Below, one piece after another: positions 4,385 to 54,639 of a stretch of DNA of 64,000 nt (the first letter of the stretch is position 1; each line of letters opens with the position of its first letter). Where the stretch lies: the NCBI RefSeq assembly GCF_058153355.1, contig NZ_CM177019.1, one strand, 5' to 3'. Made by a program: the position numbers and the translations under genes. Under the pieces are notes generated by a model, which saw only the letters and a list, made by a program, of their open reading frames with translations, was not told where the DNA came from and ran no database searches.

Positions 4385-4500
4385 GCCGGATGTGGCCTAC
4401 GGTTCGGCACAGACCTGTAGGCATGATAAGACGCGTCAGCGTCGCATCAGGCATTGTGCGCCAACTGCCGGATGCGGCGTGAACGCCTTATCCGGCCTAC
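4385..4500. repeat. REP/BIME cluster between yjjW and yjjV
   Basis: Three REP-like units, e.g. CTGTAGGCATGATAAGACGCGTCAGCGTCGCATCAGGC and TGCCGGATGCGGCGTGAACGCCTTATCCGGCCTAC. Confidence 0.85.
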
Positions 4501-7770: not shown

Positions 7771-9357
7771 TTAATGCTCGCGAGTCTGGTGGAACTGAAC
7801 GTCCGGATAACGTTCCTGCGCCAGGCGCAGGTTGACCATGCTGGTAGCGATGTAAGCGAGGTTATCGCCGCCATCAAGCGCCAGTTGGCTTTCGTTCTTA
7901 CGCTTGAACTCTTCGAATTTCTTCGCGTCCGCACATTCTACCCAGCGTGCAGTGGCAACGTTGACTGACTCATACACTGCTTCAACGTTGTATTCGCTCT
8001 TCAGGCGCGCTACCACCACATCAAACTGCAGCACACCAACCGCACCAACGATCAGGTCGTTGTTGGAGATCGGACGGAACACCTGCACCGCGCCCTCTTC
8101 GGAAAGCTGTACCAGCCCTTTGAGCAGCTGTTTTTGCTTCAGCGGATCTTTCAGGCGGATACGACGGAACAGTTCCGGCGCAAAGTTCGGAATACCGGTG
8201 AACTTCATCATCTCCCCCTGGGTAAAGGTGTCGCCGATCTGAATAGTGCCGTGGTTGTGCAGACCAAGGATGTCGCCCGGATACGCTTCCTCAACATGCG
8301 AACGGTCGCCCGCCATAAAGGTCAGCGCGTCGGAGATCACCACATCTTTCGCGGTGCGCACCTGGCGCAGCTTCATGCCTTTTTCATATTTACCGGATAC
8401 CACGCGCATAAACGCCACGCGGTCGCGGTGTTTCGGGTCCATGTTGGCCTGAATTTTAAATACGAAGCCGGTAAATTTATCTTCGCTCGCCTCTACGGTA
8501 CGGGTATCAGTCTGACGCGGCATCGGCGCAGGTGCCCACTCTACCAGGCCATCCAGCATATGATCGACGCCGAAGTTACCCAGCGCAGTACCAAAGAACA
8601 CTGGAGTAATTTCGCCCGCAAGGAACAATTCTTTGTCGAACTCGTTAGACGCGCCTTTCACCAGTTCCAGTTCGTCACGCAGCTGCTGTGCCAGATCTTC
8701 ACCAACCGCAGCATCGAGATCCGGGTTATTCAGCCCTTTAACAATACGGACTTCCTGAATGGTGTGACCTTTACCGCTCTGATAGAGATAGGTTTCGTCT
8801 TTATAAAGGTGGTAAACGCCTTTAAACAGCTTGCCGCAGCCAATCGGCCAGGTGATCGGCGCACAGCCGATTTTCAGCTCGTTCTCAACTTCATCGAGCA
8901 GCTCCATCGGGTCGCGGATATCACGGTCAAGTTTGTTCATAAAGGTGAGGATCGGCGTGTCGCGCAGACGGGTAACTTCCATCAGCTTGCGGGTACGATC
9001 TTCAACACCTTTTGCGGCGTCGATAACCATCAGGCAGCAGTCCACCGCCGTCAGAGTACGATAGGTATCTTCCGAGAAGTCTTCGTGCCCCGGGGTGTCG
9101 AGCAGGTTAACCAGGCAGTCGTGATACGGAAACTGCATCACAGACGTAGTAATGGAGATCCCACGCTGCTTTTCCATCTCCATCCAGTCCGACTTAGCGT
9201 GCTGGTTGGAACCACGGCCTTTTACTGTACCGGCAGTCTGAATGGCCTGTCCGAACAGCAGCACCTTCTCGGTGATGGTCGTTTTACCGGCGTCCGGGTG
9301 AGAAATAATTGCAAAGGTTCTTCTTTTCGCTACCTCTGCGGCCAAAAGGCTTGTCAT
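7771..9357 (-). CDS. prfC: peptide chain release factor 3; the first ~21 codons are prophage-derived
   Basis: GTPase motifs [12 protein letters not shown] and DTPGH. ATG at 9357..9355 gives [21 protein letters not shown]. The alternative native 5' end is at 48849..48913 (see findings). Confidence 0.95.
9296..9309. repeat. attL core
   Basis: GGGTGAGAAATAAT, identical to 48849..48862. Imperfect extension ([T/G]GCAAA[G/A]G). Lies in prfC codons for AIISHP. Confidence 0.8.
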
Positions 9358-40784: not shown

Positions 40785-41471
40785 GTGAAAACATTGGCAG
40801 AAAGACTAAAAAGCGAAAGAGAAAAAGCAGGAATGAGTCAGGCGCAACTAGCTGAAAAAATTGGACTTTCACAACAATCCGTAGCGAAAATCGAGAATGG
40901 AGAAACTCAACAGCCTCGGAAAATTAAAGAGATTGCTAAAGTGTTAGGGGTTTCTCAAAAGTGGTTGCAATTGGGCATTGAGGATAACGCGTCTTTCCCA
41001 AACCTTGTTGTAAAGGAGGCTGAAAGTACAACATTAGATCCTGACATTTTTGCAAACATTCCTGTCCTAGATGTCGAATTATCAGCGGGTAATGGATGTT
41101 TGGCTGAAATAGTTGAATCAACTGTAGACTGGTTCCCGCTAAGAAGGATTGATTTAAGGAAAGCTGGTGTATGTGTCTCCAATGCAAAGATCGTAAAAAT
41201 TTGGGGTAATAGTTTACTACCTGTACTTAACAATGGAGATTTTGTTGCTGTTGATGTTTCCCAAACAGTTCCTATTCGTGATGGGGATCTTTATGCTATA
41301 CGTGATGGCGTATTACTTAGAGTTAAAATATTGATCAATTTACCTGACGGTGGTCTGATTCTAAGAAGTTTCAATAAAGATGAGTATCCAGATGAAATAC
41401 TCACCTTCGAAGATAGGCGTTCCAGAATTCACGTTATAGGTAGAGTATTCTGGTCATCGCGCACTTGGTAA
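40785..41471 (+). CDS. CI-type repressor (XRE HTH plus S24 LexA-like peptidase domain)
   Basis: GTG start with GAGGGGG upstream. HTH MSQAQLAEKIGLSQQSVAKIENG. C-terminal GNSLLPVL and LRVKIL (Ser/Lys dyad context). Confidence 0.85.
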   Translation: MKTLAERLKSEREKAGMSQAQLAEKIGLSQQSVAKIENGETQQPRKIKEIAKVLGVSQKWLQLGIEDNASFPNLVVKEAESTTLDPDIFANIPVLDVELSAGNGCLAEIVESTVDWFPLRRIDLRKAGVCVSNAKIVKIWGNSLLPVLNNGDFVAVDVSQTVPIRDGDLYAIRDGVLLRVKILINLPDGGLILRSFNKDEYPDEILTFEDRRSRIHVIGRVFWSSRTW

Positions 41472-42424: not shown

Positions 42425-42680
42425 TAACTATTTCCTTCTTGGCTATATGAAAACACCAAGATACCACCGAGCCTGAAGTGGTGAAAAGACAGGCACATAA
42501 CAGCTAAGTATTTTCAACCAGAGAGAATCCTTAGCGTTGTGGTGAATGCGGCTCAGCGCACGCGGGTTAAGGTTGAGGTTGACAGTCGACCTTCTGTGGA
42601 TACCCACCCGCCTGGTGTGCAACCTTCGCCAGGCACCGGGAGGCACCCGGCACCACAACTTTATGCTGTGTGTAGTCCTC

Positions 42681-42727
42681 GCGGTACCAGTTTGTACACT
42701 TGCTTCCGGCTGGTACCGCTCTTTTTA
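42681..42727 (+). terminator. intrinsic terminator within the early-left operon
   Basis: GCGGTACCAG (42681..42690) / CTGGTACCGC (42710..42719), a perfect 10-bp stem with a 19-nt loop, followed by TCTTTTTAC. Confidence 0.7.
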
Positions 42728-42815
42728 CAAAACAGAGAAGGGCATCACCGGACGACGGGCTCATAACCCAATCCATCCGGGCGGCTGCCACCGCAGGTGT
42801 TCTTCTCTGTTTTGT
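42727..42815 (+). ncRNA. candidate structured RNA element (14-bp long-range stem enclosing sub-hairpins)
   Basis: ACAAAACAGAGAAG (42727..42740) is the exact reverse complement of CTTCTCTGTTTTGT (42802..42815). Internal CCGGA/TCCGG and GCGG/CCGC stems. No credible ORF. Confidence 0.35.
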
Positions 42816-47394: not shown

Positions 47395-48618
47395 TCAGTT
47401 TGAATCAGAGATAGTACAATTAACAATCGATTCAACCCTCTTCCACCATGCCAGGTAAGCTTTACGCTGTTCTTCTAGATAATCGCTCTTATCATAAACT
47501 TGCCATACCCCTGGCAGCTTATGACCAAGCATAATTTCTGCGATATGAGGCGCAGTAAGATCAGAAAAATTTGTTCGAGCTGTACGTCTCAAGTCATGAA
47601 GAGACCAATGAGGGAATTGATATCCTAAACACCGCCATGCGTACTGCATTAAATTGTAAGGCAGCGACTGCAATGATGTCCGACCAACGGGTTCCCTGCT
47701 TCCTTCCTTAGTAAAAAGCATATCGGAACCATTGTTCATAGAGATAGCGTACTTTATAAGCTCTTCAACCGGTTCAATAATGGGCCGCTTTAGCGGTTCG
47801 CCTGTTATCTCCCCTGTCTTATGTCGTTCTGGTGGTACAGTCCATACTTTATTAATGAAATCAAAATCGTCCACCCGGGCGGTAATTAGCTCTGAACTAC
47901 GGCAACCAAAATGCAGCAATAGTTTAATGAAGGCCCGGTATTTAGGAACCATTCGAGAACCATCGATCGCAGCATAAAGGATTTTAATTTCATCATGTGT
48001 CAGAAACCGTTTCTTCTGACCTTTACGGATATCCATATCTTTACCCGTGATATCCGACAGCGGGCGAGTTTCAATGAGCTTTCTCTTATACGCCCAGACA
48101 TGGGCCTGCTTTGCGTTAATTAGCAATCGGTCTGCTATTGCTGGAGTCTTAGTGCTAAGAGGCTCCAGGACTTCTAACCAATCATGCAATGTAGCTGCAT
48201 CGTGAGGGATATTCCCGATTTTAGAGAACAGGTGCAGCTCAAACGAGCGAAGTATCTGTTCAGAACCTTTTTTATTTTTTACACAATATGCTTCATACCA
48301 AGCACGGATCACAGACTCTACCGTCATGGCTTCAGTAGCTTTTCGTTTTTCAGCCTGCTTGACCAATCGTGGATTACGGTTTGACTCGAGTTCACCACGA
48401 AGACGGATAACTTCTTCTCTGGCCTCTTTTAATCCAGTTGCCGGGTAAGTTCCGATATCAAGACGCTCACCTTTCCCTGCCCATTGATAACGATATTGGA
48501 ACACTACGCGACCTTTCGGTGATACTCTGACAGACAGACCATCACGATCGGATTTAACCAAAACCTTATCACGTTCCTTTCCAACGACTGAACGCAACCA
48601 CGCATCAGACAGCGCCAT
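47395..48618 (-). CDS. tyrosine integrase, P4/IntS-type
   Basis: 407 aa. N-terminal DUF4102-like region (LSDAWLRSVVGKERDK..LSVRVSPKG). C-terminal HDLRRTARTN, LGH and Y (VYDKSDY) catalytic residues. Confidence 0.9.
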   Translation of the reverse strand: MALSDAWLRSVVGKERDKVLVKSDRDGLSVRVSPKGRVVFQYRYQWAGKGERLDIGTYPATGLKEAREEVIRLRGELESNRNPRLVKQAEKRKATEAMTVESVIRAWYEAYCVKNKKGSEQILRSFELHLFSKIGNIPHDAATLHDWLEVLEPLSTKTPAIADRLLINAKQAHVWAYKRKLIETRPLSDITGKDMDIRKGQKKRFLTHDEIKILYAAIDGSRMVPKYRAFIKLLLHFGCRSSELITARVDDFDFINKVWTVPPERHKTGEITGEPLKRPIIEPVEELIKYAISMNNGSDMLFTKEGSREPVGRTSLQSLPYNLMQYAWRCLGYQFPHWSLHDLRRTARTNFSDLTAPHIAEIMLGHKLPGVWQVYDKSDYLEEQRKAYLAWWKRVESIVNCTISDSN

Positions 48619-48848: not shown

Positions 48849-48862
48849 GGGTGAGAAATAAT
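48849..48862. repeat. attR core
   Basis: GGGTGAGAAATAAT, identical to 9296..9309. Confidence 0.8.
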
Positions 48863-48913
48863 GGCAAAAGTGCGGCGCTTCGCCACCTCTTGCAAATAAG
48901 GAGACAACGTCAT
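48849..48913 (-). pseudogene. prfC: orphaned native 5' end of prfC (22 codons)
   Basis: The minus strand from ATG 48913 reads [22 protein letters not shown], then NN-stop in phage DNA. Confidence 0.85.
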
Positions 48914-50626: not shown

Positions 50627-51658
50627 ATGTCTGCATTTACCCCGGCAAGTGAAGTCTTGCTGCGTCACAGTGATGATTTCGAACAAAGCCGTATTCTTTT
50701 TGCCGGAGACTTACAGGATGACCTGCCCGCGCGTTTAGATACCGCGGCCAGCCGTGCTCATACCCAGCAGTTCCACCACTGGCAGGTATTAAGCCGCCAA
50801 ATGGGTGATAACGCCCGTTTTAGTCTGGTCGCCACGGCGGATGACGTCGCAGATTGCGATACGCTGATTTACTACTGGCCGAAGAACAAACCGGAAGCCC
50901 AGTTTCAGTTGATGAATTTACTTTCTCTGCTGCCGGTGGGAACGGATATTTTTGTCGTTGGCGAGAACCGAAGCGGCGTGCGCAGCGCCGAGCAGATGCT
51001 GGCAGATTATGCACCGTTGAATAAGGTGGACAGCGCCCGTCGCTGTGGCCTCTATTTTGGTCGTCTGGAAAAACAGCCGGTATTTGATGCCGATAAATTC
51101 TGGGGCGAATACAGCGTCGATGGCCTGACGGTCAAAACGTTGCCGGGCGTGTTTAGCCGCGACGGTCTGGATGTCGGTAGCCAGTTGCTGCTTTCGACGT
51201 TAACCCCGCACACGAAAGGTAAAGTGCTGGATGTCGGCTGCGGTGCAGGCGTTCTTTCAGTTGCCTTTGCACGCCACTCACCGAAGATTCGTCTCACGTT
51301 GTGCGATGTTTCTGCGCCAGCAGTTGAAGCCAGCCGTGCAACACTTGCGGCCAACGGTATTGAAGGTGAAGTCTTTGCCAGCAACGTCTTTTCTGAGGTG
51401 AAAGGTCGTTTTGATATGATCATCTCCAATCCGCCGTTCCACGATGGGATGCAAACCAGTCTGGATGCAGCACAAACGCTGATTCGCGGCGCGGTGCGTC
51501 ATCTTAACAGCGGCGGCGAGCTGCGAATTGTAGCGAACGCCTTCCTGCCTTACCCGGACGTGCTGGATGAGACATTTGGCTTCCACGAAGTGATCGCGCA
51601 AACCGGGCGCTTCAAGGTGTATCGCGCCATTATGACCCGCCAGGCGAAGAAAGGTTAA
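50627..51658 (+). CDS. rsmC: 16S rRNA m2G1207 methyltransferase
   Basis: 343 aa. SAM motif [11 protein letters not shown] and NPPFH. Confidence 0.9.
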
Positions 51659-51677
51659 GTATCCCGCCGCAAGCCTT

Positions 51678-51711
51678 GCCGGATGCGGCGTGCTTGCCTT
51701 ATACAACCTAC
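51678..51711. repeat. REP element flanking the intron 3' side
   Basis: GCCGGATGCGGCGTGCTTGCCTTATACAACCTAC. A diverged copy with the same downstream AAAACCTGCA(A/C)GTTAG lies at 54148..54196. Confidence 0.75.
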
Positions 51712-51772
51712 AAAACCTGCAAGTTAGCCCTGTCGGGTAGCAGCGATTCATTACTGTCTCGCCGCCCCCTAA

Positions 51773-51806
51773 GAACGGTACGTGCGAGTTTCCCCGCATA
51801 CCGCTC
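51773..51806 (-). ncRNA. group II intron domain V
   Basis: GAGCGGTATGCGGGGAAACTCGCACGTACCGTTC: AGC triad, GAAA tetraloop and a compensatory C>G/G>C swap relative to the canonical GAGCCGUAUGCG...CGCACGUACGGUUC. Confidence 0.85.
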
Positions 51807-51812
51807 AAGCCT

Positions 51813-53492
51813 TTATAAGCCTCCACCTTGTGGGAGACCAGCGTCATTACTATGTAGTTGTCGATGGCAGTTGGGATGGAGTAGGACTAAATTGCTCACA
51901 TCATCGCTACCGCCAAGAGATTTCTTGAGCAAATGATGAACATTCCATCCTGTATCGCGATTAATCGGTTGCTCACATAAAGGGCAGCGCGATCCTTGCC
52001 TTTTCCATATAGCGAGAATCCTTTTCTGCCCCTGTTGGGATTTCTTCCATGAGTAGTCCAGCCTTCTTTCGAAGTATGTTTCCCACTCGGGATCATATGG
52101 ATTTGCCGTTCCCTTTATTTTTATATAGCGATTAATATGGATGTCGCTGGCCCGGGACAGAACATATTTCCTACCCTCCGGATCGACTCCATAAAATCGA
52201 CCATGACACATTTTTATTGTCGTGTGGTACTTTCGGAAGATCCATCTCCGGCCTTTGCCGGGATGTCTCCTTCTGCACCACTGCCAGATTTTGCGCCAGA
52301 TTTGGTTGTCGACATAGTTAAATGTCTCTGCCGATGCTACATGTTGGTGATAGTTTGCCCACCCGGTGATGATTGGATTAAGCAGATTTATTAGCACCCA
52401 TGCAGGAACCGTTCGGTTACCTTCAATAGTCTCTCTGATCTTGCTAAGAAATTGTTTAACGTTTTTCTTGGCTGGTCTGATTATGAGTTTTCTACCGAAG
52501 CGTCGGACGTGCTGCCCAAGGAAATCAAATCCGTCAGTAATGTGAGTGATGACCGTTTTCTCTTCGGATAACGTCAGCCCTCTTTCTGCAAGAAATGATT
52601 TCACCAACGGAAGAACATTCTCCTCCAGAAGTTCTTTCGACTTTCCGGAAATGATGAAATCATCAGCATACCGGACGAAGTGAACCTGATGTTTCCTGAA
52701 TGTTTTTGAGCGTTTCGGACCAAAGCGATTTTGCAGCAGTCTTTCCAGTCCATCCAGGGCCATGTTTGCCAGAACTGGAGATATGATTCCTCCCTGGGGT
52801 GTACCCGAGAGAGTTTTGCTGAATATGCTTTTTTCGATGATCCCGGCTTTCAACCAATTACGGAGTATTTGCTTGTCCATAGGAATATTTTCAAGCAGCC
52901 ACTCGTGGCTAATGTGTTCAAAGCATCCTTTAATATCGCCTTCCAGAACCCATTTCGAGGCGTTCCGGGAACTATACATATTACATACCTGTTGAATGGC
53001 GTCAGCCGTACATCGCGCTGGTCTGAAACCATAACTGTTGTGATCTGCATTAGTTTCCGATACAGGCTCCAATCCCAGCAGATGCAGGGCCTGCATTGCC
53101 CTGTCAAGCATGACGGGGATTCCTAATGGTCTTTTCTTGCCATTAGATTTGGGTATAAAAACTCTTTTTAGCGGTAGGGGCTTGTACCCTTTTCGCCTGA
53201 GTTTGAATATCGCTTCCCATTTTGATTCTGGAGTACTCCAGATTTGACCATCAACTCCGGGGGTTTTACGCCCGCTATTTTCCGTAACTCGTTTCACCGC
53301 CAGTGCTCTGGCGCTGAATGAGCGAACCAGCAATCGTTGCAATCTACCGACTGTACGCCATTGCTGGTTACATGCCGCCTTTGCGATTCTTGTCTGTATG
53401 GTTTTAACGTGTTGATGGCATTTCTTCCAGTTAATGGAATGCCAACCTTTTCCGTTGATGACCGCAGTTACATTGTTAGATGTAATTTTCAT
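51813..53492 (-). CDS. group II intron-encoded protein (RT, maturase X, DNA-binding and HNH endonuclease domains)
   Basis: RT motifs incl. FVRYADDFII. C-terminal HHLLKKSLGGSDDVSNLVLLHPNCHRQLH. Probable start MKITSNNV at 53492 (the track ORF extends to 53555). Confidence 0.9.
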   Translation of the reverse strand: MKITSNNVTAVINGKGWHSINWKKCHQHVKTIQTRIAKAACNQQWRTVGRLQRLLVRSFSARALAVKRVTENSGRKTPGVDGQIWSTPESKWEAIFKLRRKGYKPLPLKRVFIPKSNGKKRPLGIPVMLDRAMQALHLLGLEPVSETNADHNSYGFRPARCTADAIQQVCNMYSSRNASKWVLEGDIKGCFEHISHEWLLENIPMDKQILRNWLKAGIIEKSIFSKTLSGTPQGGIISPVLANMALDGLERLLQNRFGPKRSKTFRKHQVHFVRYADDFIISGKSKELLEENVLPLVKSFLAERGLTLSEEKTVITHITDGFDFLGQHVRRFGRKLIIRPAKKNVKQFLSKIRETIEGNRTVPAWVLINLLNPIITGWANYHQHVASAETFNYVDNQIWRKIWQWCRRRHPGKGRRWIFRKYHTTIKMCHGRFYGVDPEGRKYVLSRASDIHINRYIKIKGTANPYDPEWETYFERRLDYSWKKSQQGQKRILAIWKRQGSRCPLCEQPINRDTGWNVHHLLKKSLGGSDDVSNLVLLHPNCHRQLHSNDAGLPQGGGL

Positions 53493-54092
53493 ACATGTCA
53501 TCCAAAGAAACCTTCGCAGATGTTTCGCAATTAAAGACCAGATGGAAGTCAGCACGGTTTCCCGTTAAGGCAAATATTGAACCTCTATCCGCACGATTAC
53601 AGTCCGGCTTTCGCTTTTTCCATCCTCCTTTACCCGCATTCTCATCAGTTTGCCTTACGGTGCCCCTGCCACTAGGGCGAGAATTCGGGCTTACCAAGTT
53701 CCGACCAACATACAAAGAACGGGTTAGGTTCTGTCTATCCGCCGGGGGAGTTATTGTCCATGTATTCCCACTACGAACAGGAATAGCCTTACCCCTTACC
53801 TTTTGGTGCAAGCCTATCAGCATCTTTGGCTCGTTCTCTGTTACGACGTTTAACGACAGTTCACTATGTTAACCATACCGCCCAGCCTAGCGCTCTCGCC
53901 GCATGATGCTTGTAGCGATCAGGTTTTCTCACGATTAACTGAAGCAATATTTGCTAAGCTACATTGTCCCAAGGGCTTCAGACAGAGCCGTTACCAGCTT
54001 TGCCTGCCTCAGTAGGCTACAACTAATGGAATAGTTGGTTTTATATAAATAATTTATCAAAACAATATGTTGGACGACTTCTTGTCGCACTC

Positions 54093-54180
54093 GTAGGCCA
54101 GATAAGACGCGCCCGCGTCGCATCTGGCATCTGCACCCAAATACCGTGTCGGATGCGGCATGAACGCCTTATCCGACCTA
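54093..54180. repeat. two REP elements flanking the intron 5' side
   Basis: GTAGGCCAGATAAGACGCGCCCGCGTCGCATCTGGC (54093..54128) and GTCGGATGCGGCATGAACGCCTTATCCGACCTA (54148..54180). Confidence 0.8.
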
Positions 54181-54248: not shown

Positions 54249-54276
54249 TTGACGAAAAGCTGAAAACCACTAGAAT
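54249..54276 (+). promoter_or_regulatory. leuQPV tRNA operon promoter
   Basis: TTGACG - 16 nt - TAGAAT followed by the GC-rich discriminator GCGCCTCC, about 40 nt upstream of the first tRNA. Confidence 0.8.
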
Positions 54277-54317: not shown

Positions 54318-54404
54318 GCGAAGGTGGCGGAATTGGTAGACGCGCTAGCTTCAGGTGTTAGTGTCCTTACGGACGTGGGGGTTCAAGTCCCCCCCCTCGC
54401 ACCA
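54318..54404 (+). tRNA. leuQ: tRNA-Leu (CAG)
   Basis: 87 nt, GCGAAGGTGGCGGAATTGGTAGACGCG...GGTTCAAGTCCCCCCCTCGCACCA. Long variable arm, anticodon loop CTTCAGGTG, encoded CCA. Confidence 0.95.
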
Positions 54405-54432
54405 AAAACCACGTTGATATTGCTCGCACTGG

Positions 54433-54519
54433 GCGAAGGTGGCGGAATTGGTAGACGCGCTAGCTTCAGGTGTTAGTGTTCTTACGGACGTGGGGGTTCA
54501 AGTCCCCCCCCTCGCACCA
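54433..54519 (+). tRNA. leuP: tRNA-Leu (CAG)
   Basis: Same 87-nt sequence with one variable-arm difference (GTGTTC vs GTGTCC), which keeps pairing as G-U. Confidence 0.95.
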
Positions 54520-54552
54520 AACGAGGCGATATCAAAAAAGTAAGATGACTGT

Positions 54553-54639
54553 GCGAAGGTGGCGGAATTGGTAGACGCGCTAGCTTCAGGTGTTAGTGTC
54601 CTTACGGACGTGGGGGTTCAAGTCCCCCCCCTCGCACCA
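54553..54639 (+). tRNA. leuV: tRNA-Leu (CAG)
   Basis: Identical to the first copy. Third gene of the tandem array. Confidence 0.95.

Follow-up and report, generated by a model that had tools for sequence, protein, structure and literature searches.

A hok/srnB-homing group II intron of IncF plasmids, probably inserted ectopically into a target-mimicking chromosomal REP

Introduction

Ectopic insertion at look-alikes of the intron-binding sites (IBS) is already established for other group II introns. Ll.LtrB of Lactococcus, for example, has its home in a plasmid gene and occasionally occupies chromosomal sites that match this home mainly at IBS1, IBS2 and position +1. Here, we describe a comparable case, a 2359-nt group II intron on the minus strand (51732..54090) of a 64,000-nt stretch of contig NZ_CM177019.1 from RefSeq assembly GCF_058153355.1; this whole stretch is called the window below, and coordinates refer to it unless a contig or plasmid is named. 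The intron lies in a cluster of repetitive extragenic palindromes (REPs) between rsmC and the leuQPV tRNA genes, antisense to both, exactly where the initial annotation, made from the letters of the window, had placed it. We put at roughly 80% the probability that it is an IIB1 intron of IncF plasmids that homes to the toxin genes hok and srnB and was inserted ectopically into a REP mimicking its target.

EcI5 of pO157, the product of which is a pO157 protein, belongs to subgroup IIB1, and DNA targeting by introns of this subgroup has been described (PMC8643678). It matches the same Rfam models as the window intron, D1D4-7 (133 bits in EcI5) and Intron_gpII. Both introns start with GUGCGAC, encode a protein with the domain order RT-X-D-En (reverse transcriptase, maturase, D, endonuclease) and are associated with F-like plasmids. 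Their domains I (DI) are colinear around the EBS2 loop of ID, in which the exon-binding site (EBS) 2 takes the homologous spot (CGUCGU..ACCAG in EcI5 and CGUCGU..CAGAG in the window). However, the window protein and that of EcI5 (the pO157 reverse transcriptase) are 53% identical, and there is no megablast-level similarity between the two DNAs. The pO157 target reads ..CCAAACTGGTGCTCGAAT/ (here and below, a slash within a sequence marks the insertion point), unlike the ..AYE codon of hok/srnB used by the family of the window intron, and the EBS2a/-14 pair, essential in EcI5 (PMC8643678), is formed inconsistently in this family. The strains carrying the named E. coli introns E.c.I5 (pO157) and E.c.I9 (ATCC 8739) are both in the complete-genome set and gave no megablast match, so the window intron is neither of them.

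Among solved structures, the best match to the intron-encoded protein is the RT of T.el4h (PDB 6ME0; E = 2.4e-187 over residues 15-551). T.el4h / Th.e.I3 of Thermosynechococcus (PDB 6ME0, 6MEC), with the same domain order, is thus its best structural relative, as judged by sequence similarity alone; it is, however, found in a cyanobacterial chromosome, and its target is unrelated. Ll.LtrB stands further apart, being of subgroup IIA/ML with a protein, LtrA, that matches the window protein at just E = 2.5e-39; moreover, the window intron is known from sequence alone.

Two further systems come to mind on account of the REP. Class C (IIC) introns insert after terminator or attC stem-loops, and the window intron similarly has a strong palindrome a few nucleotides upstream of its insertion point. 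Insertion sequences (ISs) such as IS1397 and ISPa11 (the latter mentioned in bioRxiv 10.1101/527788) also target REPs or bacterial interspersed mosaic elements (BIMEs), but their DNA transposases recognise the whole class of REPs, whereas the window intron would rely on RNA pairing with a single toxin-like REP variant.

Results

The intron reads GTGCGACAAG (GUGCG) at its 5' end (54090), as the initial annotation had noticed, and CTACCCGAC (...CCCGAC) at its 3' end (51732), which satisfies the group II consensus of 5' GUGYG and 3' AY. Its boundaries are fixed by the empty sites of E. coli LR-58-1 and K-12 and by the reading frames of hok and srnB that are restored when the intron is removed from plasmid copies. 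LR-58-1, the closest complete genome (about 99% identity over the shared 8.8 kb), has the empty site ...gcgcgtcttatctggcctacga/agggctaacttgcagg..., with nothing in between. In both LR-58-1 and K-12, this site is found as ...gtcttatctggcctacga/agggctaac..., with the core junction ...TCTGGCCTACGA/AGGGC. The 2359-nt intron is the whole of the difference between occupied and empty alleles (...CCTACGA / AGGGC...), and neither a target duplication nor any extra DNA is present.

The 5' exon ends in a REP, as had been claimed: a BIME-like REP pair (54096..54178, minus strand) matches the Rfam naRNA4/REP model with 66.5 bits. The 3' exon consists of a third, degenerate REP (51662..51731, minus strand), recognised by reading and folding, which starts right after the rsmC stop codon and which, in the empty sites of LR-58-1 and K-12, directly adjoins the REP pair. 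In K-12, the rsmC-leuQ spacer had been described as short and intron-free; it is intron-free, but at 267 bp, with all three REPs and an identical 30-nt target core, it is not short. Because the empty alleles are already complete, the intron brought no REP DNA along and was not part of a larger element when it arrived. The suggestion that it had arrived with flanking REP DNA must therefore be given up, the whole REP cluster being uninterrupted in both genomes and the insertion precise, and the empty-site comparison likewise rules out an IS- or island-borne arrival. In the window, the intron is flanked directly by neither an IS nor other foreign DNA. When E. coli was surveyed for empty and occupied sites, as the initial annotation had proposed, the uninterrupted junction 60-mer was found in 3320 of 5426 complete genomes, and a chromosomal copy of the intron in none of the 5426.

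The relatives of the intron live elsewhere. PLSDB holds 20 full-length relatives (77-99.6% identity) on plasmids of Escherichia coli, E. albertii, Salmonella, Citrobacter and Enterobacter; Hok-family features lie beneath the match in most of these 20 rows, and all eight plasmid copies that were fetched are on IncF-replicon plasmids. Wherever the 5' junction places a relative in a hok-family toxin gene (13 relatives, of which eight are on IncF plasmids of enterobacteria and five on metagenome contigs), the intron lies on the sense strand and interrupts the same codon, between bases 2 and 3 of Glu in the C-terminal ..AYE. Removing the intron restores ..EVAAFMAYESGK in hok or ..NTVVQVTLAYEARK in srnB-like genes. 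The NTVVQVTLAYEARK C-terminus is one that we take to be that of SrnB of plasmid F, where the same sequence, just upstream of repA, is annotated as a Hok/Gef family protein. The five metagenome contigs with the Hok-family ..AYE/ arrangement are part of a set of six that contain the intron 5' end. Only two complete E. coli genomes carry the family (97.2% identity), both on F-like plasmids and within a hok gene. The closest relative, on plasmid pRHB33-C08_2 (L004), is 99.6% identical, with 10 substitutions in 2359 nt, and lies in an srnB-like gene.

At least 2668 PLSDB plasmids, F included, have the srnB-type target uninterrupted, as judged by a 70-mer. Copies in srnB-type sites, on the other hand, are confined to four listed PLSDB plasmids (H16-H19; junctions checked in two). 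With four copies against at least 2668 empty srnB-type targets, the occupancy of the homing site must be far below 1%. When the intron protein was searched against 185,579 GTDB species representatives, only distant relatives (at most 61% identity) came up, and no further close insertion sites. To judge from these junctions, the lineage is one of IncF-plasmid group II introns of Enterobacteriaceae that home to hok-family type I toxin genes. We found no description of such a hok-homing lineage, or of a REP insertion of a group II intron, in the searchable literature; PMC6052338 and a census of Enterobacteriales (PMC3522654) deal with other introns.

Some of the plasmid copies show peculiarities of their own. 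The srnB-like host gene of pRHB33-C08_2 is frameshifted (L004, ~2900-2920), with four T where five are needed, and its toxin is probably dead. A 77%-identical copy in hok of the Enterobacter plasmid pJBIWA005_1 (L009, 1501-3857) has a broken open reading frame (ORF), with a longest piece of 426 aa and no ltrA annotated, and appears to be decaying. On plasmid pCRST030_1, the leading region contains, upstream of ssb (L001, 1-1197), a gene for the protein of another and different group II intron (WP_058914895).

To see how a REP could stand in for a toxin gene, we located EBS1 and EBS2 by comparing the copies in a nine-sequence alignment. EBS2 (53836..53840, minus strand) is CAGAG at intron nt 251-255, in the position homologous to EBS2 of EcI5. 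EBS1 (53771..53776, minus strand) is UCGUAG at intron nt 315-320, in the terminal loop of a hairpin at 53762-53786. The pairing of EBS1 with IBS1 is complete in all nine copies (100%), and its -6 pair covaries, being C-G in four, U-A in three and U-G in two: UCGUAA occurs with exon UUACGA, and UCGUAG with CUACGA or, through the G-U pair, with UUACGA. EBS2 pairs with exon positions -13 to -9, with 91% of the alignment cells paired and compensatory changes in three of the five pairs; CAGAG goes with CUCUG (srnB), CAUGA with UCAUG (hok) and CAUAA with UUAUG. Altogether, there are four compensatory EBS-IBS pairs (three EBS2-IBS2, one EBS1-IBS1), and a fifth compensatory change lies in the stem of the EBS1 hairpin (A-U to G-C). 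None of 500 shuffles reached the observed covariation score, and slid partners were only 31-48% paired. Position +1 is A wherever the 3' exon can be read (for the ectopic contig L030, described below, it is taken from the empty site of ATCC 8739), which is why EBS3 cannot be located by covariation. A candidate EBS2a (53842) is paired with -14 in just 66.7% of the copies, so an EBS2a-IBS2a pair by analogy with EcI5 finds no support in the hok/srnB-homing family.

The window copy is of the srnB-type variant (EBS2 CAGAG, EBS1 UCGUAG). Its 5' exon target, the REP tail at 54091..54103 (minus strand), comprises IBS1 CTACGA (54091-54096) and IBS2 ATCTG (54099-54103), and the first 3' exon bases are AG (51730..51731, minus strand), as they also are at the srnB-type site, with +1 A as the presumed IBS3. 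The initial annotation had called for a comparison of EBS1 and EBS2 with the 5' exon, and the pairing is there, with 6/6 positions for IBS1/EBS1 and 4/5 for IBS2/EBS2. Side by side, the srnB-type site of pRHB33-C08_2 reads taaCTCTGGCCTACGA/AGcac (in short form CTCTGGCCTACGA/AG) and the window REP ttaTCTGGCCTACGA/AGggc. The two are identical over 12 bases on the 5' side (TCTGGCCTACGA) and two on the 3' side (AG). Further upstream, at positions -20 to -14, the REP has GCGTCTT where the hok sites have GCGGCTT. These shared 12+2 bases, together with the EBS/IBS covariation and the toxin-gene sites of the relatives, make the REP (core sequence TCTGGCCTACGAAG) a look-alike of the plasmid target.

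Elsewhere in the window, once the intron is taken out, this 14-mer has no exact match. The sole match with one mismatch, TCCGGCCTACGAAG at 4491 (plus strand), belongs to another REP, which is unoccupied. It forms the tail of a second REP pair in the window, at 4420-4497 (79.1 bits with the naRNA4 model).

The 5' junction could be read at sixteen insertion sites, of which 13 belong to hok-family genes, one to an island remnant and two to the rsmC-leuQ REP. The island-remnant site is on the sixth metagenome contig (L030, 1998-2041), where a hok-type copy sits ectopically at GATGGCTTACGA/A (...GTTGATGGCTTACGA/AAAG), in non-coding DNA beside IS3 and fimG, within a decayed integrative element near a tRNA-Leu gene. 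This site is neither hok nor REP and has 11+1 bases in common with the hok target. It is empty in E. coli ATCC 8739 (L035, 2657-2670), and the sequence upstream of the junction occurs in 32 complete E. coli genomes, none of them with the intron. The proposal that the homing site may be REP-associated finds no support, given 13 relatives in hok/srnB, one ectopic non-REP site and EBS/IBS pairs that covary with the toxin exons. A REP-specific mobile element was rejected as well, since most sites are non-REP and the REP pair elsewhere in the window is unoccupied.

When the last 40 nt of eight 5' exons were folded as DNA, the REP gave -11 kcal/mol and the others gave -1 to -3.4 kcal/mol. Seven of the folded target sites are without a hairpin, which argues against hairpin-dependent, class-C-like targeting. 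Membership in bacterial class C is excluded by the covarying EBS2, the HNH domain and the presence of a hairpin at only one of the eight folded sites; a 5' ribozyme segment of about 600 nt also sets the window intron apart from that class. The REP stem would in fact sequester IBS2, so the hairpin should hinder pairing with the intron rather than help it.

The second REP case comes from Logan, where three short contigs also encode the exact intron protein. One of them (L010) carries an intron with a single nucleotide difference in the same REP. Its 662-nt rsmC flank has 33 differences from the window, the first at +10, and 30 from K-12. Probably the same REP was hit twice, two independent insertions being the simplest reading of these flanks, although recombinational spread of the occupied allele by a crossover very near the intron is conceivable. 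L011 and one similar Logan contig consist of the intron alone, as expected of a repeat present in more than one context. Overall, the window intron differs from these and its closest plasmid copy by 1-10 nt only.

The anatomy of the intron is that of a complete element. The pre-ORF RNA, comprising domains I-III and the proximal part of domain IV (53493..54090, minus strand), measures 598 nt, close to the 600 nt first estimated, and has a mean column identity of 93% across nine family members. Rfam model RF02012 (group-II-D1D4-7) matches at 53891-54038 with 112.5 bits (gathering score 34) and spans just 148 nt of DI; domains II and III are supported by colinearity with EcI5 and by conservation among the nine copies. 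At the other end, RF00029 (Intron_gpII), which covers domains V and VI (DV and DVI), matches at 51732-51808 with 65.5 bits (gathering score 40), so the covariance-model check proposed earlier came out positive for both models. DV (51773..51806, minus strand; 34 nt, GAGCGGUAUGCGGGGAAACUCGCACGUACCGUUC) has the AGC triad and is delimited by the RF00029 alignment and a match to the RF04356 D5 model. The compensatory base-pair swap reported in it is real: the fifth pair is G-C where the Rfam consensus has C-G. DVI (51732..51771, minus strand) likewise shows, in the RF00029 alignment, the bulged branch-point A that had been described, at 51738 and 7 nt from the intron 3' end.

The intron-encoded protein (51813..53492, minus strand; 559 aa) contains the Pfam domains RVT_N and RVT_1 (RT), GIIM (maturase/X) and HNH (endonuclease), with D between the last two, and scores 369.5 bits with NCBIfam TIGR04416 (cutoff 300). 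Its YADD motif, at residue 275, is intact and the ORF is uninterrupted; Pfam, TIGR04416 and the reading of the ORF thus agree with the 559-aa, stop- and frameshift-free frame with YADD and a C-terminal HNH that was first reported. Compared with its relatives, the protein is under purifying selection (ratio of nonsynonymous to synonymous substitution rates, dN/dS, 0.06-0.15). By its protein and ribozyme, the element is to be classed as a mobile group II intron of the IIB1 / chloroplast-like-1 type, distinct from EcI5. With both ribozyme and ORF intact, it is probably mobility-competent, which is also how it had looked initially. Indirect signs of splicing and retromobility are the purifying selection on the protein and the occurrence of nearly identical copies in several samples and sites.

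As for the surroundings, rsmC (50627..51658, plus strand; an ORF named from the annotation of the syntenic LR-58-1 and K-12 loci) converges on the intron 3' end. The genes leuQ, leuP and leuV, three tRNA-Leu CAG genes found with ARAGORN (54318..54639, plus strand), are transcribed away from the intron 5' end. A promoter scan placed a leuQPV promoter-like site at 54249-54276 (plus strand; TTGACG-16-TAGAAT, 10/12 matches). The insertion is past the rsmC stop codon and about 160 bp upstream of the -35-like hexamer (54249). No host function is obviously disturbed, and the insertion is probably neutral for the genome.

The window also contains a prophage of about 39.5 kb (9338-48848) in the 5' end of prfC, as seen relative to LR-58-1. 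It is flanked on either side by the same 42 bp of prfC, which form the attachment (att) repeats (~9296-9337 and 48849-48890). The prophage encodes a tyrosine integrase (47395-48618, minus strand), a CI-like repressor with HTH_3 and Peptidase_S24 domains (40785-41471, plus strand) and proteins with DUF551 and DUF2303. Its GC content is low at 40-48 kb (0.42-0.44), and an Rfam match to the small RNA STnc100 lies inside it at 42506-42728 (plus strand; 49.8 bits, gathering score 47).

Discussion

Taken together, the distribution of the family and the likeness between the two targets suggest the following scenario. A ribonucleoprotein (RNP) from a plasmid copy of the srnB-adapted variant would have reverse-spliced into the chromosomal rsmC-leuQ REP, the tail of which (TCTGGCCTACGA/AG) agrees with the srnB target at +1/+2, throughout IBS1 and at all but one of the five IBS2 positions. 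The intron RNA would then have been copied into DNA by its own RT, that is, by target-primed reverse transcription. Such an event would be an instance of ectopic retrohoming, or retrotransposition by sequence mimicry, and not of REP-specific targeting.

The GC skew of the window and the K-12 map give the intron sense strand leading-strand polarity, which puts this strand in the template for lagging-strand synthesis. Some retrotransposition pathways, including that of Ll.LtrB in L. lactis, favour this orientation. However, a single event carries little weight.

Several observations weigh against this scenario. The donor plasmid is outside the window, and the direction from plasmid to chromosome would follow from the distribution of the copies only. 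The REP has an EBS2 mismatch at -13, and the inconsistency of the EBS2a/-14 pair indicates that the targeting rules of EcI5 may transfer imperfectly to the hok/srnB-homing family. The occupancy of the same REP in a 5%-diverged lineage (L010) means that the site may be more than a one-off accident. As for transcription, a crude consensus scan found no sigma-70-like promoter upstream of the intron on the minus strand, and the absence of a promoter depends on that crude scan.

With this in mind, the window copy is probably a young and largely silent passenger, antisense to all local transcription, with its ribozyme and ORF still intact because it is recent. One might suppose instead that the copy is expressed after all, read-through from yjjZ across the antisense leuVPQ genes being one conceivable route, that it splices and that it supplies RNPs which re-invade incoming IncF plasmids at srnB. 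We consider this doubtful. It would accord with the intact ribozyme and ORF, with IBS/EBS pairing that looks good enough for splicing at this site (the expected ligated-exon junction being GGCCTACGA-AGGGCTAAC), with the plentiful empty srnB-type targets on plasmids and with the lack of intrinsic-terminator-like sites between yjjZ and the intron in a crude consensus scan. However, apart from the missing sigma-70-like promoter, the intron is opposed by leuQPV, with a strong promoter and three tRNA genes that are highly transcribed, and its intactness is sufficiently explained by youth, given the 1-10 nt that separate it from other copies.

A second alternative, which we regard as distinctly improbable, is that REPs or their hairpin are the true preferred homing target and that the rsmC-leuQ REP is a secondary site hit repeatedly. 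The insertion point does lie 5 nt past a strong REP hairpin, and the contig with the 1-nt-different intron in the same REP, its rsmC flank diverged at 33 of 662 positions including +10, suggests two hits. Yet none of the 13 toxin-gene relatives, nor the ectopic non-REP copy, has an upstream hairpin, and in contrast to class C introns, the window intron has both an En domain and a normal EBS2. The REP hairpin itself sequesters IBS2, the other window REP, one mismatch from the core, is unoccupied, and the complete E. coli genomes, at least 3320 of them with the empty site, are devoid of chromosomal copies. Lastly, arrival by homologous recombination, or inside a larger IS- or island-borne insertion that brought the REP DNA along, would draw on the proneness of REP clusters to recombination and on lateral transfer as the cause of one occupied allele in two lineages, but it is essentially refuted by empty alleles that have all three REPs and lack exactly the intron, by the lack of IS or foreign DNA beside it and by the divergence of the L010 flank at +10, which leaves less than 10 nt for a crossover.

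Returning to ectopic insertion from a plasmid, it is tempting to go somewhat further, although we do so tentatively and would not bet on it. On the one hand, the rsmC-leuQ REP might be a recurrent secondary homing site, or refuge, of the intron, possibly along with other REPs that have the ATCTGGCCTACGAAG tail; from there, it could re-invade incoming IncF plasmids. On the other hand, the lineage might be specialised on type I toxin genes. Its members interrupt hok or srnB a few codons before the stop, so the authentic toxin may depend on splicing, and by analogy with Ll.LtrB, which modulates relaxase expression, the intron would then modulate post-segregational killing.

Overall, the rsmC-leuQ locus would be a clean natural case in which a group II intron otherwise restricted to plasmids reached the chromosome through RNA-guided target recognition, a coincidence of 14 nt between a REP tail and the C-terminal codons of srnB/hok being sufficient for the escape. 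Attention is also drawn to an IIB1 lineage dedicated to the hok-family toxin genes of IncF plasmids, which is mildly novel, as is the possible repeated use of one REP. This hok-homing lineage may be of interest for the regulation of toxin-antitoxin systems and for the development of targetrons.

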